From positions 96,001 through 160,000 of the IMG/VR virus record IMGVR_UViG_3300035182_000466: a stretch of DNA of 64,000 bases; one strand, written 5' to 3'. The notes beneath the pieces are model-generated. The model worked only from the letters and a program-made list of their open reading frames with translations. It ran no database searches and was not told the DNA's origin. Shown one piece after another: positions 457 to 25,920 of this stretch (within the stretch, counting starts at the first letter, position 1; each line of letters starts with the position of its first letter). Position numbers and translations under genes: made by a program. The DNA comes from a virus.

Positions 457-495
457 TGTAAATGCTAGTGTAAAATCTAGCTTCTCTAAATACTT
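319..495 (+). repeat. 50-bp direct repeat, two copies (319-368, 446-495)
   Basis: aagagaatta(g/a)tgtaaatgctagtgtaaaatctagcttctctaaatactt, 49/50 identical. Confidence 0.9.
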
Positions 496-533
496 GATGA
501 ATACTATGACGGAGATGTGATAGGAAAACTATT

Positions 534-1673: not shown

Positions 1674-1691
1674 TTTATGTAGGAGCAAGTT

Positions 1692-2801: not shown

Positions 2802-2808
2802 GATCCTT

Positions 2809-3747: not shown

Positions 3748-3758
3748 CTGGAGACATT

Positions 3759-6166: not shown

Positions 6167-6204
6167 TAATATTATATTAATTAGGAAGAGGAAGGTATAA
6201 TTTT

Positions 6205-6966
6205 ATGGGACTAATAAATTCTACAAGAGATATTTTAAGGGTAGGTTTAAGAGAAGGTGTTAGATATAGAGCTATAGTTACAGATAATAAAGACCCGAAG
6301 CAACTAGGAAGAATAAAATTTAAGATACCAAAATTCTTTGAGTTAGAATTAAAAGATTCTCCTTGGGCTATCTGTGCAAATGCTGGCATAGATGGTGGAA
6401 CAAAAGAATCTGGAAGTCTTGATATTCCTAGAATAGACTCTTTTGTAGAGATAATGTTTATGCATGGTAGTCCATATCATCCAAAGTATTTCTCAACAAC
6501 TTTATTTAAACCAAATCAATTAAAACAAGCACAGGTTAACTATCCTGATAGAAAAATAATAAGACTAAGTAATAAAGCCTTCCTTGTAGTTGACCTACAT
6601 AATAATCTTATTCAAGTTTATAATCCTGGTGATGTATCTATTGAGATAAATGGGAGTTGTGGAATAAACGTGCAAGGAACGACTACTTTATCTTCAGTAG
6701 GTGATACGACTATCTCAGTTAGTAAAGGTAACTTAAATGCAACTGTATTAAAAGGTGATGCTAATGTAGTAACAGAGAAAGGGGATATTATAGCTTCAAG
6801 TGCAAATGATGTCTCAGTTATAGCATCACATAATATTTATTTAACTGGTGGAAGTGGTGATGGTGACTTAGCTGGAGTAGTTACCGGAGCTTGTACTTGT
6901 GCGTTTACTGGTGGACCACATCCTGACTATTCTAATAATGTATTTGCAACTACAGGAGGAAGTTAG
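6205..6966 (+). CDS. baseplate spike / gp5-VgrG-like OB-fold protein
   Basis: VTDNKDPKQLGRIKFKIP...PWA OB-fold motif; beta-helix-like repeats; C-terminal VVTGACTCAFTGGPH metal-binding apex. Confidence 0.8.
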   Translation: MGLINSTRDILRVGLREGVRYRAIVTDNKDPKQLGRIKFKIPKFFELELKDSPWAICANAGIDGGTKESGSLDIPRIDSFVEIMFMHGSPYHPKYFSTTLFKPNQLKQAQVNYPDRKIIRLSNKAFLVVDLHNNLIQVYNPGDVSIEINGSCGINVQGTTTLSSVGDTTISVSKGNLNATVLKGDANVVTEKGDIIASSANDVSVIASHNIYLTGGSGDGDLAGVVTGACTCAFTGGPHPDYSNNVFATTGGS

Positions 6967-6967
6967 T

Positions 6968-7234
6968 ATGCCTTCAGACATGACAGGTCTAAATTCAGAA
7001 CGCCTAACACTAGTTTTACAAGAAGCTATGCAAAAGAAAGTTATGCAGTCACAGACTATAATGTTCAGTCTTGGATTAGATGGTACTGCTGCATTATATG
7101 ACTTTTGTAACATCATAGCTGAAGCTGTTTCTGAAGAAGTAATTAAAGAAATAACAATGCATAGTAAATTAGAAGCAATGTCTAGAGATGCCGGAATTGC
7201 TGGTTCTGGTATTATAACCGGTTCAGTTAGTTAG
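6968..7234 (+). CDS. small baseplate-associated hypothetical protein
   Basis: ATG directly after spike stop; IAEAV..EI pattern common after spike genes. Confidence 0.5.
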   Translation: MPSDMTGLNSERLTLVLQEAMQKKVMQSQTIMFSLGLDGTAALYDFCNIIAEAVSEEVIKEITMHSKLEAMSRDAGIAGSGIITGSVS

Positions 7235-7243
7235 GAGTGAAGT

Positions 7244-9553: not shown

Positions 9554-9579
9554 TAATTTATATTACATGAAGAAGTTAT

Positions 9580-9984
9580 ATGAGGTTAGAAATGGCAGAC
9601 TTATACGTTGATATAAATTCAAATTACACTGCAGATTATTCTTCCAATATCTTGTGTACTGGTGCACAAGCCTTATTAAACTCCCTTATAAACTTAATAA
9701 ACACAATAAAAGATGAAAATGGGATAAGTGAGAGACTTTTTAAACCATATTTAGGAACAGGTCTATATAGACTTCTTTTTGAACCTATTGATTCTATAAC
9801 TGCATATAAGATACGAATTTATATAGATCAATTAGTAGAACAAGAACCTAGAGTAATGCTAGTAAATAATGAGACTAGTATAATTGAAGATATTGAGAAT
9901 CAGTGCTACTATATTACATTAACTATTATTGATAAAGCTACACAGGAAAAGGCATCTTCAAATTTAATTTTAAGCAAGCCTTGA
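9580..9984 (+). CDS. gp25-like baseplate wedge protein
   Basis: ERLFKPYLGTGLYRLLFEP..EPRV signature; likely start at 9592. Confidence 0.85.
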   Translation: MRLEMADLYVDINSNYTADYSSNILCTGAQALLNSLINLINTIKDENGISERLFKPYLGTGLYRLLFEPIDSITAYKIRIYIDQLVEQEPRVMLVNNETSIIEDIENQCYYITLTIIDKATQEKASSNLILSKP

Positions 9985-9989
9985 GGTGA

Positions 9990-11843
9990 ATGATGATAAG
10001 AAAACCTGTAGACTTAAGTACAGTCGTTCCAAATTTTTCAGATTTTGTTGCAGCTTTACAGCAAGATCTTAGAGCACGAGACTCTTGGAAGGACCTTGTT
10101 GATGGTAGTACCGGAGAAACCTTAATAGAACATAATGCTGCTATTGGGACATTTCTACAGCAATCTTTAGAGACTGCCTTTAAAGAGTGTTTTACAGATA
10201 CAGCCTCCAGAGATAGTTCTATTTATGCAATAACTAGAATGTTGGGTATTAGAGTATCCAGAAAATTACCTGGAGTGCAAAGTTGTAACATTCAAAGATC
10301 CAATATGCTTAACTTGCCTATAAGTAATTCATTGGTTATTCCAGAATTTTCACAGTTTACTGTTGGTGATGATATTCCTTTTTATAATAGATCTACCTTG
10401 AACTTTGTAGAATCTAGTGCAACATTAAATAATGTTCTTTTATATCAAGGTAAAATTTATACTAAAAAGTATGTAAGCTCTGGAGAACCATTTCAGAGAA
10501 TAATAATTCAATCATCCTCACCAATGTCTATATCAGATATAGATATAATTGTTTATGTTGGAGATGAAAAATGGACTGTCGTTTATGATGGTTTATGGAA
10601 TTATGGAATAGATGATAAAGTTGTAGCAGATTCTACTTTAGGTACTGGTGACGTTATTCTTCAGTTTGGAAATGGCTATAATGGAGCATTACCTGCAACT
10701 AATCAAGATATAACCGTACAGTATGTAGAGACTTATGGTGCAAAATTAAGTATGATAGGTTCAGGTGCAAACGTTCAATTAAATAATCAACTTAATGGAT
10801 ACTCTATATCTGGTAATATTATACGACTACCAGATGTTACCCAAATTTTTACTACCTTAGGTGGTTTGAGTTTAACACTAAGTAGTTTAACTAATCCTAC
10901 TCCAGTAGTTTATTTACCTTCTGGAAATAGTTGGGACATAACTAATGTTGGTTTTCAATTAGAAGAGAGTAATGGAGGACTTGCTTTAATAACAGGAGTA
11001 AATGGAAATGAAGCAACCTTATCTGTAGTGTCTCCTTTTACGACAAAAAATTTATCTGCTGGATCCTGGTTTATGTCAGTACCAACTACGGGTCAAGATG
11101 AAAAACCTAGTTATTATTATAAGGTTCTATCACCTAACATGAGCAAGGCAATGGGAAGAGCTGTTACTACTCAAGACCACTCTGCTGTTATAATGCAATA
11201 CAGCGGAATAAGTGATGTTTTGGTAAGAACAGAAAAAGATATAATAAAAGCTTTGACGCAAAAAATACAGAAAAGTGCAGAGGTTATAGCTAGAGAACAG
11301 TCTCTCAATATTTATAACGGTGTGGATTACTATGAAATAGTTCCAGATATACATCCTGCACTTCAAAATGTGATATGGGTTTCATTTTTAACATCTAGTG
11401 GATTAAGTTTTAATTCACTTCAGAATACCGAATTTTTAAACTGGTTTAGATCTAAGCAATTTGATGGAACTACTATTAAACTTCAGGTTCCTACTAAAAA
11501 CATGGTAGATTTATCAATTTCTTTATATTGCAATTCTGGAAAAGATCTTCTGGTAGCACAATCATTGGCAGAGACTGCAATAAGAAAGATGTTTGCAACA
11601 GACAAGCCTATGTTGAGCAAAAAGATTGTAATGAATGATATTTATGATACTTTAAGTAATAGCCTTGATGACTTTTTAGATTATTCTTCTATAGAGGCTA
11701 AGTTAGATGGAGTAGCAACCTTTGAGTTAGTTCCAAAGAATGCAGCTATAGATGACTTCGGTTTTCCTGTACCACCTGGATACTTATATTTGCAGAATTT
11801 ATCTATAACAGCCAAAACTACAGATAGAAGAAGTAAAAGGTAG
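9990..11843 (+). CDS. baseplate wedge protein (T4 gp6 / baseplate J-like)
   Basis: TASRDSSIYAITRMLG, LQFGNGYNGALP, RAVTTQDH motifs; follows gp25. Confidence 0.85.
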   Translation: MMIRKPVDLSTVVPNFSDFVAALQQDLRARDSWKDLVDGSTGETLIEHNAAIGTFLQQSLETAFKECFTDTASRDSSIYAITRMLGIRVSRKLPGVQSCNIQRSNMLNLPISNSLVIPEFSQFTVGDDIPFYNRSTLNFVESSATLNNVLLYQGKIYTKKYVSSGEPFQRIIIQSSSPMSISDIDIIVYVGDEKWTVVYDGLWNYGIDDKVVADSTLGTGDVILQFGNGYNGALPATNQDITVQYVETYGAKLSMIGSGANVQLNNQLNGYSISGNIIRLPDVTQIFTTLGGLSLTLSSLTNPTPVVYLPSGNSWDITNVGFQLEESNGGLALITGVNGNEATLSVVSPFTTKNLSAGSWFMSVPTTGQDEKPSYYYKVLSPNMSKAMGRAVTTQDHSAVIMQYSGISDVLVRTEKDIIKALTQKIQKSAEVIAREQSLNIYNGVDYYEIVPDIHPALQNVIWVSFLTSSGLSFNSLQNTEFLNWFRSKQFDGTTIKLQVPTKNMVDLSISLYCNSGKDLLVAQSLAETAIRKMFATDKPMLSKKIVMNDIYDTLSNSLDDFLDYSSIEAKLDGVATFELVPKNAAIDDFGFPVPPGYLYLQNLSITAKTTDRRSKR

Positions 11844-11849
11844 GATGTT

Positions 11850-14018
11850 ATGATTCCGACTAAAGCTAGCAATTGGGAATATATCTATTTAGATACTAAT
11901 ACTAACTTGTATGTTCCACATTACTATAACATAACTGATAGAGTAATGTTTGAAGATAATGAGTACATAGCTCAAGTAAGTCATTATGCTACTAGTTCTT
12001 TCACGCAAGACTACTTAAATGGATATTGGAAACGTTGGAATCTTATAAAGACTAGAGAATGGCTTCCAGGAACAATTTATGCATCAGGAGATAAAATTAA
12101 GTATGGTCATATAACATATATATGTAAATATGGTCATTTATCTCAAGACTTATTTAGTAAAGATCTTAGTGTAAATTTAGATAACTTAAACTTCGATTTT
12201 TTATATAAGAGAAATGATTATAACAAAGTTTCAAAATCTTTTCCTTGGGCAGGCATAAAAGTATATACCAAAGATGAATTAGTAATAGATAGAGATATAA
12301 CATATAAGTGTTTACAAGATCACACAGTCAACACTCTTGCTGACATATATTCAACTAGACCTTTATATGGTGTAAATTGGAAAAGCTATTGGACTTTTAC
12401 TATTGAAGAACCTAAAGATTTAAACACTCGTTGGGCGCAAGGTCGTATCTTTAATATTAATGATCTGGTAGAAAATAATGGTAAGTTATATCTTTGTAAG
12501 AGCGCCTATAATGGATTATCTCCTGAGTATATAGATAATAATGAACCTGGAATGGGTTCTACTTGGAAAGATTTTTGGGATGAATTTGTACTATGGGATG
12601 TAGAACTAACCAGATGTGATTATGTCAACTGGATGAGTGATGTACCATTTCTTCGTGATTATTTAGAAGTTATTGATCTATTGCAAATAACTAATATAGA
12701 TCATCCAATAGTCAAATTGACAAAATTGAGATCATTAGATACAGAAACAGAGCAGGAGATATTAAAACTAACCACTAGCTTTTTAGGTTTTTCTTTCCTA
12801 GCCGAGTCTTCTTTAATAGATCCATCCTCATATTATCAATACATAAATTATTTGTCTATGTATAAGAGTGAGTCTGGAACTGAATCTTACTTAAAATTTT
12901 TAAACTTTATAGTAAGACATGATTTAGATATACCTTCAAACGATACTCCTCTATCTCAGTATATAGATAAAACTACAAAAGTTCCACTTTGGAAAATTAA
13001 AGAACTATATACTCATAATTATAAATCTTTTTGGACTAAAGAAGAAGTTATTTGTAAGTTAGGACTGAGCAAAAAATACTTTAAAACTACTTTCTTTAGA
13101 TCTAATGGACAAACAGTATATAATATGTTTGAAACAGTTGAATATATGGGTTGGGTTTGGAGTAGTCTTGTTGATAATAATGAAGACTTACCTACTTTAA
13201 CTTCTCCTTATTGGACCAGAGTTTCTGCTCTACCTGAATCTGAATTTGTAGATAGTTCATTACTTTCAAATTTTGATGATAGTGAGGTTTTGTATTTAAA
13301 TTTTCCTATGACATTTAGAGGAACTTGGTTCAAGCTAGAGTCTTATTATTTGAATGATACAGTAATATATAATGGTAAAATATGGAACTGTATTAAAGCT
13401 GGTGCTAAAGGATATATACCTTATGATGGAAGTTCTTACTGGAGTAAGGTTTCAGATATAAATCTTTTTGAAGTGTATAATAGTTATAAAACATACTATG
13501 TAGATGATAAAGTAATGTACAACAATGAAATTTGGCAGTGTACTAAAGCCAGAATAAAAGGTCAAGAACCATCTGACTCCAGTAGTTCTTGGAACAAGCT
13601 CTCTGACTCCAGTTCTGTAGCTAGTTCTGAATTTAAGAATTATGGTTATTATAGAACCAATAGAGTATATTTATATAGATCTGATGATATGCGTAAGATG
13701 GGTTCTGACTTAGAAAAGTATCCTGAATATGCAGGTATAACTAAAATATTTTATGAATTATCAATTGCAGCTAAAGTAATTTATATAAAGGAGATTGGAT
13801 ATGATTATGTATTATCTAACTTACCAAGACTTGTTCAGATAAATCCAGATAATAGTGAATTTGAAGAAGCTCACTATATACCATTTATTTGTAATAAAAA
13901 AATTACATATCCTACACCTGTAAGAGTAGGCAATTGGGTACCAGATGACCTTAGATCTTGTGTAACTTGTCCACAAAAATTATTTACACCTAATATTACC
14001 GAAAGTCAACAACTGTAA
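11850..14018 (+). CDS. baseplate wedge (gp7/tail protein I-like) with carbohydrate-binding-module-like repeats
   Basis: repeated W..G..Y..D.V.Y.G..Y.C (CBM5/12-like) units around a core with YKSESGTE; position after gp6-like gene. Confidence 0.6.
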   Translation: MIPTKASNWEYIYLDTNTNLYVPHYYNITDRVMFEDNEYIAQVSHYATSSFTQDYLNGYWKRWNLIKTREWLPGTIYASGDKIKYGHITYICKYGHLSQDLFSKDLSVNLDNLNFDFLYKRNDYNKVSKSFPWAGIKVYTKDELVIDRDITYKCLQDHTVNTLADIYSTRPLYGVNWKSYWTFTIEEPKDLNTRWAQGRIFNINDLVENNGKLYLCKSAYNGLSPEYIDNNEPGMGSTWKDFWDEFVLWDVELTRCDYVNWMSDVPFLRDYLEVIDLLQITNIDHPIVKLTKLRSLDTETEQEILKLTTSFLGFSFLAESSLIDPSSYYQYINYLSMYKSESGTESYLKFLNFIVRHDLDIPSNDTPLSQYIDKTTKVPLWKIKELYTHNYKSFWTKEEVICKLGLSKKYFKTTFFRSNGQTVYNMFETVEYMGWVWSSLVDNNEDLPTLTSPYWTRVSALPESEFVDSSLLSNFDDSEVLYLNFPMTFRGTWFKLESYYLNDTVIYNGKIWNCIKAGAKGYIPYDGSSYWSKVSDINLFEVYNSYKTYYVDDKVMYNNEIWQCTKARIKGQEPSDSSSSWNKLSDSSSVASSEFKNYGYYRTNRVYLYRSDDMRKMGSDLEKYPEYAGITKIFYELSIAAKVIYIKEIGYDYVLSNLPRLVQINPDNSEFEEAHYIPFICNKKITYPTPVRVGNWVPDDLRSCVTCPQKLFTPNITESQQL

Positions 14019-14048: not shown

Positions 14049-16613
14049 ATGGCTACAATGCAAATAACTAAAGTCGGTTATGAGCAAATAACCGATGCAC
14101 TACAAAGTGGTTATACTTTAAAGATTACTAAAGTTAAATTTGGTACTGGATCAGATTATGTTCCAACAGCAGGAGATGTTGAACTTCATGGTCATATTCT
14201 ATATGAAGGCCCAATTAGTAATGTGGATGTAGTAAATGATGATATAATTGATTTTCTTTGTATTTGCCCTGAGAACTTAGGTGTAGACACAGTCACTATT
14301 GGTGAAGTTGGATTATATATAGAAAATACTGATGGAACCGATACTCTATTTGCATTAGCTTGTTATCCTTATCCTTTCAGTAAAGCACCAAATATGCGGT
14401 ATAAAACACACTGCTTAGTTTTGAATCCATATATAAGCAATGCAGTAGATTTAACTTTAACTTGGACTATGAGTTTACCACGAGTTAATTATTATGGAGA
14501 TTTACCTAATCCGGAAAGAACTGGAGATAATGCTTATATAGTAAACCACGGATTTACAGATAGTGGTGTTTTAAAACCTTCTTTAGTTACACGATACGCA
14601 ATGTCTGATACAGGCCCACTAGCGTGGGGGCTCTTAAATGGAGATTTATATTATGATGGCTATGTTACTCCAGTTGAAGGGGATCCAGCCAGTTTTAAAT
14701 TAGCTGGTTTACCATTGTCTAACTTTCCTGCCATAAATATTAAATTTGCTTTTGTTTATGTTTGTGAAGGTACAGGAAGAACTCAGTGTAGAGCATTATC
14801 TTATAATGCATCACTAGATTGCTTTACTACTTTGTATGAAGACTTTTCCTTAACTGTTAAGGGATCTGGAACTCCTTCCTATGAAGGAGCTTGTAATACA
14901 GGTAACACTGCAGGTACTGTGTTGCATATAACTAATCTAGATTCAAGCTCAAGAGTATTGATTTGGACAGCGGTAAGGATGGAAGCTACTGGTCTTGTTT
15001 TTAGAGGTCGTTGGGATGCAGCAGCAGGATATCCATCTAGTCCTATTCCAGGATCATACTGGGTAGTATCTGGTAATGGTATTATAAATGGAACCTGTTA
15101 TCAAGTTGGAGACTGGATGGTATTTTCTGGTGATGAACAGTGGGATAAGATTGATAACACTGAACTACCTTACTTACTATATCGTGGTGATTGGGATGCT
15201 TCTACCGGTCAAGCTCCACCGCCACAACCAATACAATATTATTGGCAGAATATTCGTCAAGGACATTATTGGGTAATAAGTACTGCTGGAGTTATAGCAG
15301 GAGTATGGTTTGATGTTGATGATTGGATAGTATGGAATGGAACAAAGTGGCAAAAAGTAGATAATAAAGGTGGTCTAAAATTTAGAGGGTATCATGCTAT
15401 AGTATCTGATAATCATGTGCCTACTGTTTTAACTGATGGTGACTATTGGATTGTGTCCCAAAAAGGAACTATTAATGGTATTCGTTATGATGTTAAAGAT
15501 ATCCTAGTATGGACAGGTTCAACCTTTATGCGGTTGATAAATCAAGAAGGCTTAGTTTATCAAGGTCTTTATGACCCAAGCATAACTGGTGAATATCCAG
15601 TGCCTTTCAAATCTGGTGATCTTTGGATTGTTAAAAAGAATGGTGAAGTAACTAATCAAGATGATCCTACAGTTAAAGATAACTTATATGTAGATGATTT
15701 TTTAGTAGCTATTCCAACTACTAGTACTACTTTTACCTGTGATACTAATAGTAATAGTACCATTTTAAATACTACTGGTAATATGCGTTGGAAAGTAATT
15801 TCAGCAGGAGGATTAACCTATCGTGGTACTCATGATGCATCTACTGGTATTATGCCAATTCCCCTGCATAAAGGAGACTATTGGGTTATTACTAATCCAG
15901 GTTATTTAAATGGTGTATATTATGAAACAAATGATTGGATTACATTTAATGGATCTTCTTTTAATAAAGTTAGTAATAGAGAAGGTCTTAAATATCAAGG
16001 ACTGTGGGAAATTGGTACCAACGGATCTGTACCTCCAACTCATCCAGTAGAAGGTGACTTTTGGATTGTTAGCTCTCCTGGATCTGTACAAGGCACTGGA
16101 TATAGTATAGGTGATTGGTTAGTTTGGACAAATTCTGGATGGACTAACGTTGATAATAGACCTGGATTCTATTATAGAGGAGACTGGAATCCAACTTCAG
16201 GAACAAATCCAGTTGCATTAAAAGAAGGCGATTTGTATCGTATTAACGCTGCTGGTACATTCAATGGCGAGCATGTAGCTCCTGGAGACTTCATTGTTTG
16301 GACAACAGCAGGATGGCTCCTGATCTTAGGAACTCTTGACCGTATAGATATTCCTAGATATAACATAACCACTAATGATTACATGCTCCGTGAGTATGAA
16401 TATGCAGATGCTTCTACTGGTAAAGTATATAACTCAGCTAAAAACCTTAAGATAGGATTTGCATTAGAGATTTTATTTAAAGATAGAACTAATCCAGTGT
16501 ATGTACCATATCTTGAACAATTGAACGAATTAGAGTTTTGTGGTTGTACTTGTACTTGTACTTGCCAATGTACGGCACCTTGTAACTGTTGTAAAGGCGC
16601 AGGTCCAGTTTAA
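14049..16613 (+). CDS. tail fibre: collar-type N-terminus, seven ~60-aa repeats, Cys-rich C-terminal tail
   Basis: ITKVG..KITKVKFG..IGEVGLY..LFALA tail-collar-fibre N-domain; seven G.Y.G.WD..GD.W.V..G..GDW.VW repeats; ends CGCTCTCTCQCTAPCNCCKGAGPV. Confidence 0.8.
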   Translation: MATMQITKVGYEQITDALQSGYTLKITKVKFGTGSDYVPTAGDVELHGHILYEGPISNVDVVNDDIIDFLCICPENLGVDTVTIGEVGLYIENTDGTDTLFALACYPYPFSKAPNMRYKTHCLVLNPYISNAVDLTLTWTMSLPRVNYYGDLPNPERTGDNAYIVNHGFTDSGVLKPSLVTRYAMSDTGPLAWGLLNGDLYYDGYVTPVEGDPASFKLAGLPLSNFPAINIKFAFVYVCEGTGRTQCRALSYNASLDCFTTLYEDFSLTVKGSGTPSYEGACNTGNTAGTVLHITNLDSSSRVLIWTAVRMEATGLVFRGRWDAAAGYPSSPIPGSYWVVSGNGIINGTCYQVGDWMVFSGDEQWDKIDNTELPYLLYRGDWDASTGQAPPPQPIQYYWQNIRQGHYWVISTAGVIAGVWFDVDDWIVWNGTKWQKVDNKGGLKFRGYHAIVSDNHVPTVLTDGDYWIVSQKGTINGIRYDVKDILVWTGSTFMRLINQEGLVYQGLYDPSITGEYPVPFKSGDLWIVKKNGEVTNQDDPTVKDNLYVDDFLVAIPTTSTTFTCDTNSNSTILNTTGNMRWKVISAGGLTYRGTHDASTGIMPIPLHKGDYWVITNPGYLNGVYYETNDWITFNGSSFNKVSNREGLKYQGLWEIGTNGSVPPTHPVEGDFWIVSSPGSVQGTGYSIGDWLVWTNSGWTNVDNRPGFYYRGDWNPTSGTNPVALKEGDLYRINAAGTFNGEHVAPGDFIVWTTAGWLLILGTLDRIDIPRYNITTNDYMLREYEYADASTGKVYNSAKNLKIGFALEILFKDRTNPVYVPYLEQLNELEFCGCTCTCTCQCTAPCNCCKGAGPV

Positions 16614-16630
16614 ATTAAAGTGAGGATAAT

Positions 16631-17368
16631 ATGTCAAGAGTATATTTTTGTGTTAAAAACAGTTATTCTTCTACCACTCCTAAACCTGCGAATATTACGT
16701 CTGTAGGAGATGTAACTATAACAGTATCTAATTCAAACATAATAATAAATCAACCCGATGTTCTTATAGACTCAGATAGAGATATACATTTAATAGTTGC
16801 TTCAGATTTTACATTTAATACTCCTGGTCTAGTTCAGACTTCGCATGTTTTTGGTTCAAAGGATTATTTTGATAAAGTACAGGTTTATTATTATAATAAT
16901 ACCTATTTCTATTATTTTGAAAGTGTAGAACATTACTGTGCCGTATATGAGCGTCACTTTTCTACAGTTTATTTTAGACATGATCCTACTAAAATATTCT
17001 GTGAAGTAACATCTAATGCGATAGCTATTCAAGGAGCAGGTAAATTTGTTTTTCTAATCAGAGGTCTTTTTGTTTCAGAAAATGTAGTTACCTTGAAAAT
17101 GCAAGATGAAGAAAAAACTGAAATACCAATATCTTTAATATCAGATAGTAATACACAAACTACGTTAAACTCTATAAATACTTCTTTCAATACGTTAGAA
17201 AATGGTACTATAGTAGATTCCTTTATTCAAAGTCGTGGATTCTTTTTAGAGCTAGACCCCGATGTTTTAAAAGGTGAAGGTTATCTAATAATAGAGAATG
17301 AATTACCTACAAGTTTTGCAATAACCGGTGTATCTAAGACTAGAAGTAAAATGATGTTCTTTATTTAA
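16631..17368 (+). CDS. hypothetical protein between tail fibre and radical SAM cluster
   Basis: 245-aa ORF with RBS (gagg); no recognisable motif. Confidence 0.6.
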   Translation: MSRVYFCVKNSYSSTTPKPANITSVGDVTITVSNSNIIINQPDVLIDSDRDIHLIVASDFTFNTPGLVQTSHVFGSKDYFDKVQVYYYNNTYFYYFESVEHYCAVYERHFSTVYFRHDPTKIFCEVTSNAIAIQGAGKFVFLIRGLFVSENVVTLKMQDEEKTEIPISLISDSNTQTTLNSINTSFNTLENGTIVDSFIQSRGFFLELDPDVLKGEGYLIIENELPTSFAITGVSKTRSKMMFFI

Positions 17369-17402
17369 AATAATAACTGATTACTGGTAAAGGAAAAATA
17401 AA

Positions 17403-18767
17403 ATGATAACTAAACATGATTTAGAAGATGATATTTTAACCTTTTCTAAAGATAGGTCTTTTAGGTATTTTAAAACAAAAGGCGGATTATTAGTAAAGAG
17501 CTTTCTTAATACAAATAGATACTATATAGAAAGTGCTGATGATGATTTACCTATTGCCTCTGTTTGTTTTGGAGAAGAAATATTTACTAATGATGAATTA
17601 GATCAACTATATGATATTATAAATCAAGATAAAAAACAGTTACGCCAAGATATATTTAGTTTAGGAATATTCAATTCTACCTGTAATGTTAGTTGTGAAT
17701 ATTGTACTAATGGCGATAGAACTAAAATGCTCCAGAAGCTACCAAGTATAGAACAACTACAAGAGGTCTTTAATACTTATAACATCAAATATGTAAGTGT
17801 AGCTGGAGGAGAACCATTAGTAGAATGGCCCCAACTAAAAAATATTCTGACATTTTTAGATGAACAACCTGGTATAAAAACAATGGAAATCTTATCAAAT
17901 GGAAGATTACTTAAGCCTGAGATACTTGAGTTTATATCTAGTTTAACACGAGACGTTAAGTTATTTTTAACTGTTACTACAAAAGAAGACTCAAAAGATC
18001 ACATGAATATACAAGAGCTTTATGAGTTATATCCGAAGTTGGTAGGACACCCTGTTGAAATAAATATTGTTATAGACCACTATAAATTTGATGTAGATAG
18101 ATTTTTATCTTTAATTGTAGAAATGGTTAAAAAAGGAAATTTTGGAGTAACCTTAAATGCAATACGCAGAGAAGACGCAACAGAAGAAGGACTATTGCAA
18201 TTAATAAATAATGTAAAAGCAATGATCCGAAGTCCTCATATTCGTGATTTGTCTTGCCCCGAAGACGATAATCCAACAACACCTTTTTATTATGCAACCG
18301 GAAGTTGTAGTAGTGGGATGATTTGTGCTTCATCTAAAGGTTATTCCTTTTGTTTGGCCTCTATGCCACAATATATAGAACAAACTGTAGAAGGTGTAAA
18401 GAATATAAGATATATGCAGTCTAAGCATGGATGTGAATCTTGTGATGCTTATTTTGATGATGTCTTATGTAAGAATAATATTTTCTCTGGTAGTTGTTAT
18501 AAACTAGAAAGATTCAACTGTTTAACTTGTCCTAATTTATGCCAATGCCAATATCAGAAGTGTTATTATCTTTCAGTGAAAAAAATAACAAATCCAGTTG
18601 CAGATTATAATAGAGACTTAAGATGTATAGCTTATGTTTTAATTTTCAATCTTATTGACTATATAAAACATCAACATATAGATTATTCTGATAGTAATAG
18701 TGTGTATAAAATAGACTCAAATAAAATACCGGAGAAATTAGTAAATGAATATTTTTCTACTAAATAA
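17403..18767 (+). CDS. radical SAM protein with Cys-rich SPASM-like C-terminus
   Basis: CNVSCEYC (CxxxCxxC), GGEP, SNG; many C-terminal Cys (CESC, CLTC..CQC..C). Confidence 0.9.
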   Translation: MITKHDLEDDILTFSKDRSFRYFKTKGGLLVKSFLNTNRYYIESADDDLPIASVCFGEEIFTNDELDQLYDIINQDKKQLRQDIFSLGIFNSTCNVSCEYCTNGDRTKMLQKLPSIEQLQEVFNTYNIKYVSVAGGEPLVEWPQLKNILTFLDEQPGIKTMEILSNGRLLKPEILEFISSLTRDVKLFLTVTTKEDSKDHMNIQELYELYPKLVGHPVEINIVIDHYKFDVDRFLSLIVEMVKKGNFGVTLNAIRREDATEEGLLQLINNVKAMIRSPHIRDLSCPEDDNPTTPFYYATGSCSSGMICASSKGYSFCLASMPQYIEQTVEGVKNIRYMQSKHGCESCDAYFDDVLCKNNIFSGSCYKLERFNCLTCPNLCQCQYQKCYYLSVKKITNPVADYNRDLRCIAYVLIFNLIDYIKHQHIDYSDSNSVYKIDSNKIPEKLVNEYFSTK

Positions 18768-19863
18768 ACATCACACTTGCTACCTATCAAATTCTGAGTT
18801 AAACTTTCTTAGGTTCTGTGCAGAGAAGCTTAAAGGTCTTGAATATGTAGAACAACCAGAGCTAGCAGATTTAATTGTTTATTCCGGATGTTCTGTTTCT
18901 GACGATTATATCATGAGGAATAATAAAGAGCTGGATAAACTTATAGCGCTATATCCAGAAAAGAAATTTATGTTATTTGGATGTGCTGCACCTTATGGTG
19001 AGCACTCAAATGTAATTAGTATTGTACATCTAGAACATTCTAAATTAGATGATCTCTTTAATTTACCTTCTGGTTCAATAAAGCAACTTCACTCTTATTA
19101 TTTCACCTATGAGAAAATTTTTGAAGATCAGAAAGCTATTTTTATATCTAGTGGTTGTGCTAGTAATTGTACTTATTGTAATATTAAGTTATCTAGACCT
19201 AAATTAAAATCAATGCCTTTAGAAGATATTCTTGAAAGAGTGAATCAGTTTTATGCAACTAATCATCATTATGTCTTATGCTCAGATGACTGTGGTTCAT
19301 ATGGATTAGATATAGGGACTAATTTTGCAGTTTTACTAGAAACTTTAGTTTTAAATTTTCCTGATATACTTATAAATATAAAGTGGGTTAATCCACAATG
19401 GTTTATAAAGTATTATGATGTTATAAAGAAATATGTGGATACAGGTAATGTTATAGGTATAGAATGTCCTATTCAGTCAGGATCAGATAGAATATTAAAG
19501 TTAATGAATCGTCCATATACTGTAGAAGAAGTCATTGATAAATGGACCAAGATAAAAGGAAAGTTACTATCTTCTAAAGGTACAGTCATAGTAAACTTTC
19601 CTGGAGAAACTTGGGAAGAATTTTTAGCTTCTATGTCTTTACGTAAACATTATGAAATTTTTATAGTATATATTTTCAAACTAAACAAAAATACAGCTAG
19701 TGCAAATCTTCCAGATAGACGAACAGAGGAGGATGCTAAGAGACGACTTGAATATCTAAAAGAACATTATCCAGACATATACTATGGTGGAGATCTTATA
19801 GATAATAACTTAGACCGCTGTATAGACAAACCTTATATGGTAGATAACTTAGAATATGATTGA
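18745..19863 (+). CDS. MiaB/RimO-like radical SAM methylthiotransferase lacking TRAM domain
   Basis: N-domain Cys (TCYLSNSE, SGCSV, FGC), GCASNCTYC, PIQSGSDRILKLMNRPYT, FPGET. Confidence 0.85.
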   Translation: MNIFLLNKHHTCYLSNSELNFLRFCAEKLKGLEYVEQPELADLIVYSGCSVSDDYIMRNNKELDKLIALYPEKKFMLFGCAAPYGEHSNVISIVHLEHSKLDDLFNLPSGSIKQLHSYYFTYEKIFEDQKAIFISSGCASNCTYCNIKLSRPKLKSMPLEDILERVNQFYATNHHYVLCSDDCGSYGLDIGTNFAVLLETLVLNFPDILINIKWVNPQWFIKYYDVIKKYVDTGNVIGIECPIQSGSDRILKLMNRPYTVEEVIDKWTKIKGKLLSSKGTVIVNFPGETWEEFLASMSLRKHYEIFIVYIFKLNKNTASANLPDRRTEEDAKRRLEYLKEHYPDIYYGGDLIDNNLDRCIDKPYMVDNLEYD

Positions 19864-21076
19864 TACTTTATCCATAAAAATGGTAGATATTCCAGGTGTT
19901 CTTGAATATCATTCTTCGACGCATTCTTTCAATTATTGTCCTGAAGTTATACAGACTGAAAGAATAAAATTTGAAGATAGAAATGAAATACAACAAGACT
20001 TCTCGAAAGAATATCTTAATAAACAAAAAGAAGAATCAGATAAAGTACCAATTATAGGTACAGTAACCATTACTAATGAATGTAACATGGGATGTTCTTT
20101 TTGTTATGCTCATAAAAATGAGCAACTAGGAAAAATAAATTTAGACTATCTTATACGATTAAAGGAAAAGCTTCCTAAAGAATGTTTTGATCATCTTATT
20201 TTATCTGGTGGTGAACCATTATTATATTTTGATACGGTTAAGTCAGTAAGAAAGTTATACTCAAAGGTTGTAATATATACTAATGGTAGTCTTTTAACAG
20301 AAGATATTATTAAATGGTGTATAGATACAAAGACATGGTTATACATAACGTTAGATTTTGATATTCCAGATTTTATTGGTCATCACTCTAGTCCTGTAAG
20401 AGATTTACTAGAAAAGTACATTTATAAGTATCCTAAATTGTTAGATATAATATCTTTTGGGACAGTTCTTCCAATAGAAGAACTTATAAATTTGCCTAAG
20501 CTTAGGCAACAACAAAAACCTTTTGAGTCAGGTATATGGAGACTATACAATTTTTTAGATCCAAAAGATAAAAATTATGTAGTTAGTTCTGAAGGTTTTG
20601 ATCTTGAAATGAGTAATATAGAAACTGGTTCTATTAGTCTTCAAGAATCAATATTTTTTAGATATTTGAACTATGTACAAACAGCTTCTACTAATGAATA
20701 CAACTATAGTTGTTGTGGAAATTCATTAGCCCTAACACCCAGTGGAAACTTAACTATCTGTAATGAGTTATCAAGTTTACCTGAGTCTCGTTTAAAAAAT
20801 ACAAAAGTATGGTCAATAGATTCATTAGATTTAGAAGAAGTTAAACAAGAACAATTAAGAGTAGGTAAATACGGTATTAAAAGTTTTTGTGGTTCATGTA
20901 TTATGAAATATTTTTGTTCAGGATTGTGTTGGCAGAAAAAGGGTAATCTTAAACATCAATGTCAAATGGCACGCTTCGGAATAGCATATAGTATGTATTA
21001 TAAGTTTAACTATTTGAATACTAATTCAATACTAAATCCGAATACAAAGTTATCAGAAATCTTAAGAGATAGGTAA
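19856..21076 (+). CDS. radical SAM/SPASM protein
   Basis: CNMGCSFC, GGEP, TNG; SPASM C..G.LTIC..CGSCIMKYFCSGLC..C. Confidence 0.9.
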   Translation: MIDTLSIKMVDIPGVLEYHSSTHSFNYCPEVIQTERIKFEDRNEIQQDFSKEYLNKQKEESDKVPIIGTVTITNECNMGCSFCYAHKNEQLGKINLDYLIRLKEKLPKECFDHLILSGGEPLLYFDTVKSVRKLYSKVVIYTNGSLLTEDIIKWCIDTKTWLYITLDFDIPDFIGHHSSPVRDLLEKYIYKYPKLLDIISFGTVLPIEELINLPKLRQQQKPFESGIWRLYNFLDPKDKNYVVSSEGFDLEMSNIETGSISLQESIFFRYLNYVQTASTNEYNYSCCGNSLALTPSGNLTICNELSSLPESRLKNTKVWSIDSLDLEEVKQEQLRVGKYGIKSFCGSCIMKYFCSGLCWQKKGNLKHQCQMARFGIAYSMYYKFNYLNTNSILNPNTKLSEILRDR

Positions 21077-21083
21077 TATATTT

Positions 21084-22352
21084 ATGTCTTCATCAAAAAT
21101 TTTAGTAAATGCTATTGGTATAAAAGATAATTCTACGGGATTTGCTATCTTATATGTTCCAGAATTTCATTTATTTTTAAAGTCTGAAATACGTCAAAAT
21201 AAACCTGTAGAATTTTATACTAATTATTCAATGCCTGTACTTTGTACTCATCAAAATGAGATATATGAAGAGTACAATAAACTAGAAACTCAGGCAGTAA
21301 ATAAAATTCCTAACATAGGTTATGTAATAGTTAATAATGTCTGTAATATGAATTGTACCTTTTGTTATGCTGCGGCTAATACTAATCATAAAAGAGTAGA
21401 CATTTCTGATCTAGAGCACCTGTCTAAGATATTGCCCAAAAATTCGTTTAGAAAAGTAATTATTTCTGGAGGAGAACCTTTATTAGACTTTGATCTTGTA
21501 AAACAAATAAGAACATTTTTTGATGAAATGACTATAAACTCTAATGGAATGCTTCTTACAGAAGATATAGCTAATTGGTTAGTAGAAACAAAGACAAAAA
21601 TGTATATCGCCTTAGATTATGAGATTAAAGATTTTGAAGGACATGACTTTAATGCTAAAGCGCATGTAGAAAGTATAATCGCTAAAGTTCCAGAAGTTCT
21701 TCCATTTATAGAAGTCGCTGTAACTTACCCTAGTGATAAACTAGATGAGTTAAAAGATATTAGAACTCAAAATCTTCCATTTGAAAAAGAACTGACCCAC
21801 GATTTTAATTACATTAAAGGAAAGGATCCTTTAGTTTTAACTAAATCTATATTTGAAAAAGAAATAGAAAGAATAGAAAGAGATGAAATTTCATTACAAG
21901 AATCTATCTTTCATAAACCTCTTAAATATATACGAAATACTTATAACTGGAGACTTAATATAGAGTCATGCTCTCCAGCCGTACATTTAAATCATCTTGG
22001 AGATTTACATCTATGTCAGGTTAGAGCCTCCAATACAAATAGACCTGAAGAGTATGAGAAAGATGTTATCTGTAAAGCTAAAGATTTTAATTTAGACATA
22101 TATAGACAAAGATCCAACAAAGATAAAAAGATTGGAGTTTGCACAATAGATAAAAATTGTAACTGTAGATGGTTTTGTGGAAATATATGTTGGGCTAATA
22201 TAAAACATAATAAACATAATTGTGAAGTTCTTAAATACTCGTTATTCTATTCTATGTATTTAGTTCATAATTATCTTTCTATGGAAGGTTTTAGTTTATT
22301 AAATTTAGATAGATTTTTCAATTCAAAACTAAAAGGATTGAACTATGTCTGA
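21084..22352 (+). CDS. radical SAM/SPASM protein (paralog of upstream gene)
   Basis: CNMNCTFC, GGEP, SNG; SPASM C..GDLHLC..CNCRWFCGNIC..C; shares ISLQESIF with 19856-21076. Confidence 0.9.
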   Translation: MSSSKILVNAIGIKDNSTGFAILYVPEFHLFLKSEIRQNKPVEFYTNYSMPVLCTHQNEIYEEYNKLETQAVNKIPNIGYVIVNNVCNMNCTFCYAAANTNHKRVDISDLEHLSKILPKNSFRKVIISGGEPLLDFDLVKQIRTFFDEMTINSNGMLLTEDIANWLVETKTKMYIALDYEIKDFEGHDFNAKAHVESIIAKVPEVLPFIEVAVTYPSDKLDELKDIRTQNLPFEKELTHDFNYIKGKDPLVLTKSIFEKEIERIERDEISLQESIFHKPLKYIRNTYNWRLNIESCSPAVHLNHLGDLHLCQVRASNTNRPEEYEKDVICKAKDFNLDIYRQRSNKDKKIGVCTIDKNCNCRWFCGNICWANIKHNKHNCEVLKYSLFYSMYLVHNYLSMEGFSLLNLDRFFNSKLKGLNYV

Positions 22353-25300
22353 TATTCGTCCTGTACTAAGTATTTTAGAAAAACCTGAAACCTTAAATAA
22401 AAGTAAGCAATGTTCTTTTACCTTTAAGTCATCTAAACCTTTGAAATATGTCTGGTGTGTTTTGGATAATAATCCAAGTTTTAAACTATATCCATCAAAA
22501 GATTATCCAGAAGGTGATATTGCTATTTTATCTTTAACCTATGATGATTCTGATGATAGAGTTAAACACGAGCTAACAGTTCAAGCAGTAGATACAGATG
22601 ATAATCTTGAGATATATAAAAATGTAATAGTTTGGACTAATGTTTTTATACCTATACAGTCTACATTAGTAGAACATCCTTCTGATCCAGATTTAGACTT
22701 AGCAAGTTATTTTCTAATTACTACAAATAAAACTGTATTGGGAGTAAGATATTCCTTAAATAATAATCCTTATGTTTTTGTCAAACCTTCAGATAGAGTT
22801 TCTGATAACAAGACAGTAGATATTTCATTATATGATCTATCAGAAAGATCATATACGATAAGATATAAAGCTGTAGATGAATTTGGATTCGAAGAATTAA
22901 CTGAACATGAATTTACTTGGAATAAAGTAGTACGTCCTATTACTACAATAGTAAATATATCTGAAACAAACGATCCAAAAGTAATAGAGTTATCTGTAAA
23001 TAAACAAGTTGCATATATTGAAAGTTATCATTATTACGGTGAAGATAAAGAATCTTTTAGCGAAATTTGTTCAGAAGTAAACTCCTCTGGACAAGAAAGA
23101 TTCTACTTTAGAATACCACAACCTTTTGAAGGTAAAAATGAAGTACAATTTACAGCTGTAGATACTAAAGGTTACAGAGAATTAGAACCCGTTGTTTATA
23201 CTTGGTATGAAGATAAAACAGTTTTATATTCTACCTTTATTGAGACACCAGCAAAAGTATCACAGATTACAGATTCTAAATTTACTATTGTAACTAATAA
23301 ACCAGTCGATCATATAGAATATACTTTAGACGATCAACCGGAGAATAAAATATACCCTTGGCCTGAAGATGTAACTAATAAAACGTTCAAGATAACATTT
23401 ACATCTATGCAAGAAGGGTTTCATAATCTATCTATAAGAGCAGTAGATGGGTCTGGATATTTGGAGGATGAGGCACGTGTTTATTCATGGAAAGTAGAAG
23501 ATCCACCAGTTTCAAATATAATAAAGTACCCAATTAGTCCTAGTACAGAATCAACTGCTACCTTTAAAATTGTTGCTAACAAACCATTGAGTCATGCATT
23601 ATACTCGTTGAACGGATCGTCTTGGAAAGTATTTAATATAGATCCTAATGACTCAACTAAGACAAGTGCAAGTATAACAATATCTAATTTAAAAAATGGC
23701 GATTATACTATACAGATAAAAGCAGTAGATTTATTTGGAGCTGTGGAGAGAGAATCAACTGAAAAATCTTGGAGTGTAGAAGGTATTGAAGTTGTTTATC
23801 CAAATGTAGGATATGGTTCATCTAAAACAATCTTACCAGATGGAGTTACAGAAGCATTTAGATTTCACCCATCTCCAGGTGTATATTTTCCAGAGAGCTT
23901 ACTTGAGTTACCATCTGTTAGATCAATAATATATCCAGATACATTTATTGTAACATTTCCCGAAAAGTTTTCTAATCAAACTTCAGGAGTATTTACATTT
24001 TCATCTACTAGAATTGGAGCAACCTACCAGATTAGTTTAGATGGTTCTGAGTGGAAAGATGTAGGTAATCTATATAAATTTAATGATCTAGTTTTAGGCT
24101 CTCATTTACTTAAAGTTAGATCTATAGATAGAGCTGGGAATATTGATCCATCACCAGCAGAGTATTCTTGGAGTATAGACACTAAAAAACCAGTTTCTAC
24201 CTTTGTAGAAACTCCACCTAATATATCTATCTCACAGGAAGCATCTATAAGAATAGAGGTAGATAAACCAGTTCAGTACGAGTTGTACTCTTTAGATAAT
24301 TCTATATGGTTAAAGTCTTATCCTTTAGAGTCAGATCCAGATAATAGAACGATATTAGTAGAATTATATAATCTAAATTCTGGACCGCATAATTTTAGAG
24401 TAAAGGCTTGTGATATATATGGTAATATAGAAGTACCAGAAAAGTATTATAACTGGTTTGTAAATACAGATAGGACTCCACCTGATACTATTATAACTAC
24501 TATAATTCCTGAATATACTAATAAAGTTAACTGGGATATAGACTTTATGTCACCTAAACTTGGTTGCACTTTTGAAGTAGCTTTAGACGTAACATTATCT
24601 AATACAGATATACGATATGGTGAATGGGTGTCTGCGAAAAGTCCTTATATTCTTTCTGATTTAGCTGATGGACATTATGTGATAAAGGTTAGAGCGATTG
24701 ATCTATTTGGAGATATAGATGTTACACCTGCTCAATTAGCTTGGAATATAGATACAGTTCCACCAAAATTATTTTTTGTTACAAAGCCGACAGGACCAAA
24801 TGGAACATTTGAAGTTGTCTCAAATAAAACAAATTGCAGCTATCATTTTATTTATAATGATAGTGATACAGAAAACGTAGTATACAGTCCTATCATACCA
24901 TATAGCAATTTACCTGAAGGAGTTAATATTGTAAAAATTTATGCTAAAGATATGGCAGGAAATTCTGGAGATGTTATTTCTTATACTTGGACTATTGATT
25001 CAGTAACACCTAATACCTTTATTGATACTTATCCAATAGATAATAGCTCAAGTGGGCAGTTTACTTATCACGCAGATAAACCTAATTGTGTCTTTGAAGT
25101 TACTTTGGACTCAGTTACAAGTTTTAAAGAAAGTCCTTTTACTTTCACTAATTTATCTTCAGGTTTTCATACCTTTTCAGTTAGAGCAAAGGACTTAAAT
25201 GGAAATTTTGATGTTAATCCCAAAACATATACTTGGGAAGTAAAGATTTTAAGTACGATAACTGTTACAGTTTTTAATGCAATTAATGCTAAAGCTATCT

Positions 25301-25920
25301 CAGGTGCACTTGTATCTATAGACACTGGAGAATCTAGTAATACAAATACTTCTGGTGAAGCTAAGTTTACTAGTATAAAGGCAGGACTTAGAACAGTCAC
25401 AATCGCTAAAGATCAATTTGTTACAGAAACCGTAACAGTTACTTTAACTGAAGCTGCGATAGCAATAACTGTTTTATTATCGCCCTCTCTATGGGATGGT
25501 GCCTATCGTGCTGTATTACGTTGGGGTTACAAACCTTCTGACTTAGATATCCATATGTATGTACCATCAGGATCAACTTACATAGACCGTAACTGGGCTA
25601 ATAAAGGAAGTGAAATTTCCACACCATCTGGATGGCTAGACATAGATGATACTGATGGTTATGGTCCAGAAACTGTTACTGCTAAAACTCCAAATATAGG
25701 TATTTATCAAATATGGGTGTACAATTATTCTCAAACACCAGATATAACATCTTCAAATGCTGAAGTTAGTATATACTCAGACCAAGGAAAACAGCGTACT
25801 TATAAAGTACCTTTAAACTTAGGTACAGGATATAAAGCTTGGCATATATGTGATATCGACTGTGTAAACAAAATTATAACTGATGTAAATTTATTAAGAA
25901 CAAATCTACCAAATATATAG
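22345..25920 (+). CDS. large Ig-like repeat virion protein with C-terminal carboxypeptidase-regulatory-like and YfaP/DUF2135-like domains
   Basis: repeated H.(F/L).V.A.D..GN.D..PA.Y.W.ID units; LRWG..DLDIH...DDTDGYGPE motif. Confidence 0.7.
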   Translation: MSDIRPVLSILEKPETLNKSKQCSFTFKSSKPLKYVWCVLDNNPSFKLYPSKDYPEGDIAILSLTYDDSDDRVKHELTVQAVDTDDNLEIYKNVIVWTNVFIPIQSTLVEHPSDPDLDLASYFLITTNKTVLGVRYSLNNNPYVFVKPSDRVSDNKTVDISLYDLSERSYTIRYKAVDEFGFEELTEHEFTWNKVVRPITTIVNISETNDPKVIELSVNKQVAYIESYHYYGEDKESFSEICSEVNSSGQERFYFRIPQPFEGKNEVQFTAVDTKGYRELEPVVYTWYEDKTVLYSTFIETPAKVSQITDSKFTIVTNKPVDHIEYTLDDQPENKIYPWPEDVTNKTFKITFTSMQEGFHNLSIRAVDGSGYLEDEARVYSWKVEDPPVSNIIKYPISPSTESTATFKIVANKPLSHALYSLNGSSWKVFNIDPNDSTKTSASITISNLKNGDYTIQIKAVDLFGAVERESTEKSWSVEGIEVVYPNVGYGSSKTILPDGVTEAFRFHPSPGVYFPESLLELPSVRSIIYPDTFIVTFPEKFSNQTSGVFTFSSTRIGATYQISLDGSEWKDVGNLYKFNDLVLGSHLLKVRSIDRAGNIDPSPAEYSWSIDTKKPVSTFVETPPNISISQEASIRIEVDKPVQYELYSLDNSIWLKSYPLESDPDNRTILVELYNLNSGPHNFRVKACDIYGNIEVPEKYYNWFVNTDRTPPDTIITTIIPEYTNKVNWDIDFMSPKLGCTFEVALDVTLSNTDIRYGEWVSAKSPYILSDLADGHYVIKVRAIDLFGDIDVTPAQLAWNIDTVPPKLFFVTKPTGPNGTFEVVSNKTNCSYHFIYNDSDTENVVYSPIIPYSNLPEGVNIVKIYAKDMAGNSGDVISYTWTIDSVTPNTFIDTYPIDNSSSGQFTYHADKPNCVFEVTLDSVTSFKESPFTFTNLSSGFHTFSVRAKDLNGNFDVNPKTYTWEVKILSTITVTVFNAINAKAISGALVSIDTGESSNTNTSGEAKFTSIKAGLRTVTIAKDQFVTETVTVTLTEAAIAITVLLSPSLWDGAYRAVLRWGYKPSDLDIHMYVPSGSTYIDRNWANKGSEISTPSGWLDIDDTDGYGPETVTAKTPNIGIYQIWVYNYSQTPDITSSNAEVSIYSDQGKQRTYKVPLNLGTGYKAWHICDIDCVNKIITDVNLLRTNLPNI

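Follow-up and report, generated by a model that had tools for sequence, protein, structure and literature searches.

A cysteine-tailed phage fibre with adjoining radical SAM genes: a candidate RiPP-like maturation module for a virion protein

In the SCIFF system the radical S-adenosylmethionine (SAM)/SPASM enzyme CteB acts on a Cys-rich sequence, CteA, that is encoded alongside it, and the product, thermocellin, carries an S-to-C-gamma thioether (PMC10114670). QhpD is a radical SAM/SPASM enzyme that installs thioether bridges inside a protein, QhpC (PMC10114670). In the PapA/PapB pair (freyrasin) and the CXXX-repeat system (NF047865, TIGR04115) one SPASM enzyme makes repeated cross-links in a Cys motif that is itself repetitive. 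Here we describe a locus related to these systems in a 64,000-nucleotide stretch of viral DNA (the window), which is bases 96001-160000 of the 170-kb viral metagenome record IMGVR_UViG_3300035182_000466. It comprises the gene of a tail fibre that ends in a Cys repeat (P0001), a gene for a protein without assigned family (P0002) and four radical SAM genes (P0003 to P0006; Table 1). The locus is probably a phage-encoded maturation module, similar to those of peptides that are ribosomally synthesized and then post-translationally modified (RiPPs), for thioether cross-linking and methylthiolation of a virion fibre tip. Full-text searches of the literature gave no description of radical SAM modification of a phage fibre. 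The virion cross-links known to us, such as capsid chainmail, form by themselves.

Comparison of the window locus with known maturases

P0001 is classed as a tail fibre on three sequence features: its N-terminal domain, its position after the baseplate genes and its homology to a tipped fibre. The N-terminal match to the tail-collar fibre domain PF12571 is borderline, with 22.6 bits at a cut-off of 23. The protein also matches tail-fibre families of PHROG (4e-7). Residues 1-440 are 57% identical (479 aligned residues) to the fibre P0009 of a related phage (L001, 295 kb), which terminates in the fibre tip domain Gp53-like_C (1.9e-11). Because the homologous fibre carries Gp53-like_C there, the Cys tail of P0001 appears to occupy the place of a receptor-binding tip. 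The C-terminus is the distal end of tail fibres. Residues ~320-760 of P0001 (window 15000-16400) form about eight Trp/Gly-rich repeats of ~55-60 residues each, weakly similar to DUF2793; the L001 relative has two to three of these.

The C-terminal module of P0001 consists of a recognition-like segment and a Cys run. Of the last 24 residues nine are Cys; six of these alternate strictly as C-x, and the chain then closes with a short spacer and the end motif C-x-C-C. Scanned in six frames, the whole 170-kb record yielded no Cys-rich small open reading frame (ORF), and the Cys-dense coding stretches of the region are restricted to the fibre tail and the iron-sulfur motifs of the enzymes. Other Cys-dense frames in the genome were opposite-strand or out-of-frame readings of repeats and were rejected. 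A word-based search with the last 65 residues of the fibre recovered only the query.

All four enzymes possess the CX3CX2C motif and match the radical SAM domain PF04055 (E-values 7e-10 to 5.5e-19, 39.8-69.4 bits at a cut-off of 29.5); the motif is invariant in alignments A1, A4 and A5. P0005 and P0006 are paralogues with 35% sequence identity and are referred to as the B family. Aligned with four relatives (A1), they retain CX3CX2C, GGEP and a complete set of SPASM Cys residues. The pattern tested comprises seven Cys (C-x9-15-G-x4-C, then C-x2-C-x5-C-x3-C, then C), which in SPASM enzymes bind auxiliary clusters. The AlphaFold2 model of P0006 has a predicted local distance difference test score (pLDDT) of 77.7, and its closest fold is the thioether synthase CteB (5wgg, Z 21.8, root-mean-square deviation 4.1, 352 aligned residues), a match that takes in the N-terminal domain. 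Next, at Z 18-20, are ChlB, anSME and TigE. Alignment of the predicted fold extends over residues 7-398 for CteB and 76-402 for anSME. From the Cys pattern and the predicted fold, P0005 and P0006 are judged to be SPASM enzymes.

The likeness to the SCIFF system lies in the plan of the locus, with a radical SAM/SPASM enzyme next to a Cys-rich sequence that would be its substrate, and in the enzymes: CteB is the closest fold of P0006 and also the best solved relative of the first enzyme in another cassette, L060 (1.2e-24). Furthermore, the thermocellin link runs from S to C-gamma, and window-type tails are Thr-rich between the Cys residues. The differences are that the candidate substrate is the end of an 854-residue fibre instead of a ~45-residue peptide, that Cys recurs at every second residue, that no leader protease is present, and that two to four different radical SAM enzymes occur per cassette. 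Scores of P0005 and P0006 for TIGR03974 (SCIFF maturase) were 37 and 30 bits, and for NF047865 (PapB) 35 and 31 bits, at cut-offs of 425 and 340, respectively, with matches to the radical SAM core only. According to the model, P0005 and P0006 would thus resemble SCIFF and PapB maturases in fold and mode of action, not in family membership; they appear to be maturase-like enzymes outside every named family.

The PapB and CXXX-repeat systems are approached more closely by other cassettes than by the window. The L060 and L288 enzymes match both PapB and TIGR04115, and the L291 tail has Cys at every fourth residue. The window tail is built of C-x instead of C-x3-Asp units and is fused to a fibre, and the B family is a separate and rare clade. 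NCBIfam scans gave no match for P0001, to the target families or otherwise, and TIGR04115 was not among the reported matches of the window enzymes. To judge from these sequence comparisons the window lies outside the CXXX-repeat target system (TIGR04114/TIGR04115), to which the L291 tail spacing and the L060 and L288 enzymes come near. With QhpD/QhpC the locus would share thioether bridges in a protein that remains within a larger assembly, and a partner enzyme in L289 matches TIGR03906. However, QhpC, the gamma subunit of quinohemoprotein amine dehydrogenase, is a small periplasmic subunit of a bacterial enzyme, whereas the protein considered here is a phage fibre with a low-complexity Cys-Thr run, and the window enzymes have no specific QhpD signal. 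The locus also differs from a RiPP in the strict sense, as the window locus has no short precursor of leader and core, and neither a leader peptidase nor an exporter was found in its cassette or the related ones. What sets the window apart is the combination of features: its alternating Cys-Thr run is fused to a fibre, and beside it are two copies of a rare SPASM family, a methylthiotransferase and a second SPASM-like family.

This second family, called A, is that of P0003. Its orthologues in L007 (33% identity) and L010 (21-22%) retain CX3CX2C and six C-terminal Cys without exception. The AlphaFold2 model of P0003 is poor (pLDDT 47), and its SPASM-like Cys pattern is read from the sequence. 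An earlier note on this DNA had described three radical SAM proteins with SPASM-type Cys clusters; for P0005 and P0006 the pattern and the predicted fold agree with this, while P0003 has a similar Cys pattern only. The other features named in that note were found again in the ORF list of the window: the coordinates, order and overlaps of the genes, the 24-residue fibre end with its nine Cys exactly as quoted, and the 245-residue protein of no recognized kind behind the fibre. Its statement that the cluster holds no separate short precursor agrees with the six-frame scan. The 245-residue protein, P0002, gave no Pfam, NCBIfam or PHROG match and no usable Atlas match, the Atlas model being of low confidence; phmmer found a 241-residue protein of L007 (1e-11) and nothing else significant. 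A protein of 239-275 residues takes this position in most cassettes, with homology detectable for the L007 copy only.

P0004 has the architecture of MiaB and RimO, with a UPF0004 domain (1.7e-4) containing three Cys and a radical SAM core (PF04055, 5.5e-19). It matches TIGR00089 at 1.5e-43 (149.2 bits, under the cut-off of 251) and the RimO family TIGR01125 at 2.8e-28, and its closest solved relatives are RimO chains (~4e-19), followed by MiaB (9e-16). The N-terminal cluster residues C12, C49 and C80 are shared with the L007 orthologue. The UPF0004 Cys residues, the core and the TIGR00089 match bear out the methylthiotransferase-like character that had been ascribed to this fourth enzyme. RimO itself modifies a protein, by methylthiolation of Asp88 of ribosomal protein S12. 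P0004 differs from RimO in scoring below the family cut-off, in occurring in some cassettes only (the window, L007 and the contig of P0012) and in lacking a TRAM domain: Pfam and NCBIfam scans gave no TRAM match and the protein stops at residue 372. The tails of the window and L007 share the end motif P-C-x-C-C-x-G-x-G-P, and it is a guess from these two cases that the methylthiotransferase is tied to this motif.

When P0006 and the final 60 residues of the fibre were predicted as a complex, a co-fold that the earlier note had proposed, the score was 0.64, compared to 0.20 for the best of three controls. Of 80 solved complexes 58 reach the mark used for this score, as do 2 of 110 mismatched pairs. 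At least 31% of contacts are shared between runs, with a partner pLDDT of at least 42. In the predicted interface enzyme residues 264-287, a stretch that includes a family-invariant Ser-Ile-Phe, and 393-403 contact fibre residues 798-812, the segment before the Cys run that is similar in most tails. In the model the docking looks like leader recognition.

Distribution of Cys tails and enzyme families

An exhaustive profile search with alignment A1 among 1.84 billion cluster representatives (E<=1e-30) found 22 clusters of the P0005/P0006 family, with a clear gap beneath. A protein with a Cys-repeat tail is encoded directly upstream of the B-family cassette in all ten informative contexts (the window, L005, L007, L010, L288, L289, L290, L334, L335 and L291); nine tails alternate as C-x and that of L291 has Cys at every fourth residue. 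L333 was excluded, being too short to include the fibre, and the P0012 contig is known by its gene map. The negative set consisted of generic radical SAM core matches from profile scans of genome and metagenome contigs, with no close homologue among the matches listed; in these loci with distant radical SAM relatives only, none of 157 had a tail among the matches listed. A rough Fisher test of tail against enzyme family gave p = 4e-14, a value that ignores the relatedness of the loci. With the P0005 sequence alone as query, a search of viral contig loci gave nothing.

In the reverse search the DNA pattern of the tail was scanned for twice, without regard to the enzymes and with ~120 loci each, so that the tail census is a lower bound. 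Their matches were mostly microsatellites and out-of-frame readings. Genuine C-terminal tails were found in at least L060, L123, L322 and L318, which add two lineages, and among the matches listed radical SAM genes adjoin the tail on every contig that reaches past the gene. L060, L123 and L322 form a lambda-like siphophage group in which the tail is on a short protein behind a J-type central fibre, whereas L318 belongs to a 363-kb phage. The first enzyme of L060 is a clear PapB relative (NF047865 1.4e-61, TIGR04115 9e-41) and the second is a B12-type radical SAM protein. In L288, L289, L318 and L335 the partner enzymes tend towards PapB or QhpD, for example an L288 enzyme with matches to PapB (2.2e-17) and TIGR04115 (4e-11), and the L289 partner mentioned above (TIGR03906, 2.4e-11).

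Tail and enzymes are also absent together in two relatives. The L001 phage has homologous fibre bodies with other tip domains and no Cys tail, and contains one distant radical SAM gene ~130 kb from the fibres. P0165 shares 63% identity with the fibre body of L007 and is free of Cys, and no radical SAM gene lies within 10 kb of it on an 83-kb contig. In the tail-less relative of L007 (L331:12340-15793), a ribonucleotide reductase large-subunit gene is apparently interrupted by a LAGLIDADG-type gene (faint match). The earlier note had asked whether phage fibres ending in Cys repeats occur together with adjacent radical SAM/SPASM genes, and held that homologous enzyme clusters without a Cys-rich tail, or the reverse, would speak against its proposal. 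No homologous cassette without a tail was encountered in the ten contexts, and among the matches listed all tail contigs reaching past the gene had radical SAM genes, so that the proposal withstood this test. The fibre bodies are otherwise unrelated between lineages while tail and enzymes travel together, which indicates that they form one mobile C-terminal module. Every tail belongs to a protein encoded where a tail operon has its fibre gene. The lambda-type tail-tip genes of L060 show that the module is not restricted to giant myophages.

The Cys tail recurs in 12 lineages and is written with mixed synonymous codons, which argues that it is maintained at the protein level and is not an artefact of slippage or microsatellites. 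Tails hold 9-16 Cys in the last 45 residues, with longest alternating runs of 6-12 Cys, and 61 of the 89 residues between Cys are Thr. A G-x-x-L-x-hydrophobic segment precedes most tails by 15-35 residues, often with a Tyr/Val-Ile/Val-Pro turn (alignments A3 and A6). In the L291 variant 14 Cys are distributed over the last 120 residues.

Among cultured phages, tblastn with P0005 found only weak matches, in the Ralstonia phages RP12 and RP31, and the region matched no cultured phage record by megablast. In the phiKZ-like RP12 (NC_041911.1 82427-89997; L336:5260-12830) four CX3CX2C genes, three of them annotated as radical SAM, follow virion structural genes. The four-enzyme clusters of RP12 and RP31 thus adjoin virion genes, have no Cys tail and are too distant to count either way. 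Just upstream in RP12 is a 125-residue Cys-free protein rich in His, Tyr and Trp, which might be another kind of substrate.

Proposed maturation and alternative readings

Taken together, the co-occurrence, the co-absence, the fold and family likeness and the complex prediction support the earlier suggestion that the fibre C-terminus is the substrate. It is very probable that the Cys tail is acted on by the adjacent radical SAM enzymes. The chemistry may be thioether formation, which we favour only slightly, and it is reasonably likely that the tail, once modified, remains part of the virion and has a role in stability or adsorption. In the proposed sequence of events, the fibre would be made with its C-terminal module, in which Cys alternates, mostly with Thr, behind a short recognition-like segment. 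Late in infection of an anoxic host, the co-transcribed P0003, P0005 and P0006 would dock on the recognition-like segment, and 5'-deoxyadenosyl radical chemistry would join Cys sulfurs to carbons of neighbouring residues. The bridges would be thioethers of the ranthipeptide or sactipeptide kind, with the Thr side chain as the obvious acceptor; Thr is a likely acceptor, as in thermocellin, where the link is from S to C-gamma. Where P0004 is present (in the window, in L007 and on the P0012 contig), it would add a methylthio group. The fibre would keep the product at its distal end, as a compact, redox-independent polycyclic tip replacing the ordinary receptor-binding domain. No protease or exporter was found in the window cassette or in related ones, the neighbours being virion and lysis genes, and we infer from this that the product stays on the fibre.

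A more detailed picture, which we offer tentatively and think rather doubtful as it stands, is a thioether ladder in the Cys-Thr run, possibly between the three fibre chains and with a methylthio cap: a non-proteinogenic, redox-inert tip that is built by enzymes and can be swapped between fibres together with its maturases. As to its purpose one may speculate about a rigid tip or trimer lock that needs no disulfides, which would fail in reducing sediments. If the proposal is correct, RiPP chemistry reaches from small secreted peptides to viral structural proteins, and the presence of several radical SAM genes inside tail operons of some large phages is explained. It would also mean a hidden layer in the prediction of host range from fibre sequences, and would offer a compact set of tag and enzymes for placing thioether staples on proteins.

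Several points weigh against this proposal. All loci are metagenomic, and all functional steps are drawn from genomic association, likeness and a model. The Pfam SPASM model gave no match to the window enzymes at E<=0.01, and for all curated maturase families they score far below the cut-offs, with matches limited to the radical SAM core. As a structural match of P0006, anSME, which converts Cys to formylglycine, nearly equals CteB (Z 18.7). P0002 and P0003 are structurally unexplained. The complex score may owe something to resemblance to solved maturase-peptide complexes, the confident contacts do not include the Cys run and the fold of the partner itself is uncertain; moreover, the docking segment might be inaccessible once the trimeric fibre has folded.

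The alternatives are taken here in order of falling likelihood. The same enzymes and tail could serve another chemistry, such as conversion of Cys to formylglycine, epimerisation or formation of carbon-carbon links, with no thioethers. Such a course is unlikely, although anSME chains match P0006 at Z 18.1-18.7, one source labels two family members sulfatase maturation enzyme AslB, and the epimerase YydG/EpeE and cyclophane enzymes are among the weaker matches. Sites of sulfatase maturation have a C/S-x-P/A-x-R context. The tail does not provide this context; its invariant feature is dense Cys repeats, as in precursors of thioether peptides. Moreover, the closest fold is a thioether synthase with its N-terminal domain included, and independent cassettes of the L060 type use a clear PapB/CteB relative.

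Metal sites of the His-x-His type are known in the tips of phage fibres and spikes, and the Cys run could be their thiolate counterpart, a metal or iron-sulfur tip on the trimer axis whose centre is built or inserted by the enzymes. Alternating Cys would place the thiols on one face of a beta-strand, and the tails hold 9-16 Cys in their last 45 residues. We nevertheless regard a metal tip as improbable: metal binding would not call for a set of two to four dedicated radical SAM enzymes, their likeness is to peptide-modifying maturases and not to cluster-assembly proteins, and the prevalence of Thr between the Cys residues (61/89) suits an acceptor more than a spacer.

It is still more improbable that the fibre is a carrier or giant leader from which the modified tail is cleaved as a free peptide, a toxin or signal. 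Release would be in keeping with RiPP logic, which normally finishes with removal of the leader, with the shedding of C-terminal chaperone domains by some fibres and spikes, and with the size of the L060-type precursor, just 191 residues. Opposed to this are the lack of a protease or exporter in any cassette, the invariable location of the tail on fibre-position proteins of tail operons, and the nature of the downstream genes, which encode an Ig-repeat protein of virion type in the window and a membrane protein and endolysin in L007. A Pfam scan also gave no peptidase S74 match on P0001.

That the enzymes are auxiliary metabolic or nucleic-acid-modifying proteins (tRNA methylthiolation, nucleotide or cofactor chemistry) merely adjoining the fibre is hardly credible: the P0004 family is dominated by tRNA enzymes, and all the radical SAM proteins show weak matches to MoaA, viperin, QueE and NrdG, but these matches cover the shared radical SAM core only, P0004 has no TRAM RNA-binding domain, nucleotide- and cofactor-acting radical SAM enzymes fit the P0006 model far worse (Z 11-14 vs 18-22), and tail and enzymes occur and are absent together across lineages with unrelated fibre bodies.

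Gene order and neighbouring features

The source record, estimated to be 63% complete with ~31% G+C, represents a giant phage of which the window is a part. Identical DNA was found in sediment and microbial-mat samples, an origin that agrees with oxygen-sensitive enzymes; none of the sequencing runs listed with this DNA was an RNA run. The features of the locus and the Cys-tailed proteins of related loci are listed in Table 1. Intergenic gaps in the cassette are 7-34 nucleotides, the enzyme genes overlap or nearly abut, and the cassette runs into the structural operon, the last radical SAM gene overlapping the start of the next gene (22345).

Table 1. Positions of the features in the window and Cys-tailed proteins upstream of radical SAM genes in related loci
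Feature	Position	Strand	Remarks
Baseplate wedge genes	9580-11843		phrog_261 at 5e-19, phrog_219 at 1.5e-38; tail protein next
P0001, tail fibre, 854 residues	14049..16613	+	directly after baseplate/tail genes
Leader-like segment of fibre, residues 798-812	16440..16484	+	predicted docking site on SPASM enzyme
Cys-repeat core of fibre, residues 831-854	16539..16610	+	candidate substrate; 9 Cys/24 residues
P0002, 245 residues	16631..17368	+	no family assigned
P0003, radical SAM, 454 residues	17403..18767	+	A family; PF04055 7e-10; Cys-rich C-terminal SPASM-like region
P0004, MiaB/RimO-like radical SAM methylthiotransferase, 372 residues	18745..19863	+	TIGR00089 1.5e-43
P0005, radical SAM/SPASM, 406 residues	19856..21076	+	B family, P0006 paralogue; CX3CX2C, GGEP, SPASM Cys pattern
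P0006, radical SAM/SPASM, 422 residues	21084..22352	+	B family, universal enzyme of the module
L007 (also L008, L009), Cys-tailed protein, 407 residues
L005, Cys-tailed protein, 643 residues			after Baseplate_J gene
L010, Cys-tailed protein, 720 residues			N-terminal part 45% identical to P0001
L288, Cys-tailed protein, 355 residues
L289, Cys-tailed protein, 447 residues			beside phrog_11439 tail fibre
L290, Cys-tailed protein, 370 residues			5' end cut by contig
L335, Cys-tailed protein, 660 residues
L334, tail			contig begins within tail; tail end 20 nucleotides before enzyme gene
L291, upstream protein, 888 residues			variant cassette at 3-11314; Cys every fourth; then four radical SAM genes
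L060, L123, L322, Cys-tailed protein, 191 residues			lambda-like siphophage group; behind J-type central fibre
L318, Cys tail			363-kb phage; adjacent radical SAM

Among the related loci, the L291 cassette also holds two Cys-rich proteins of 276 and 281 residues that are weakly alike. In L060 (11183-11794, minus strand) a short Cys-tailed protein is encoded, and the J-like protein matches phrog_31 (2e-151) within a lambda-type tail-tip gene set. Lysis genes (membrane protein, endolysin) follow the cassette in L007.

Downstream of P0006 in the window, a 1191-residue protein with Ig-like repeats (Y_Y_Y, Big_13, Ig_J) and a carboxypeptidase-regulatory-like domain is encoded at 22345-25920, its start overlapping the P0006 stop; in L007 and L010 its position is taken by a small membrane protein and an endolysin homologue. 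Two upstream tail proteins (window 11850-14018 and 7244-9553) have CBM_5_12 (1e-17) and chitobiase C-terminal-like (8e-12) domains, and these carbohydrate-binding modules hint at a polysaccharide receptor. An NAD-dependent DNA ligase (window 28016-30463, phrog_3869 3e-142) has a ~165-residue N-terminal extension that matches nothing. At window ~34160-34230 gene orientation and GC skew switch; here the plus-strand late and structural genes stop and a long minus-strand block starts.

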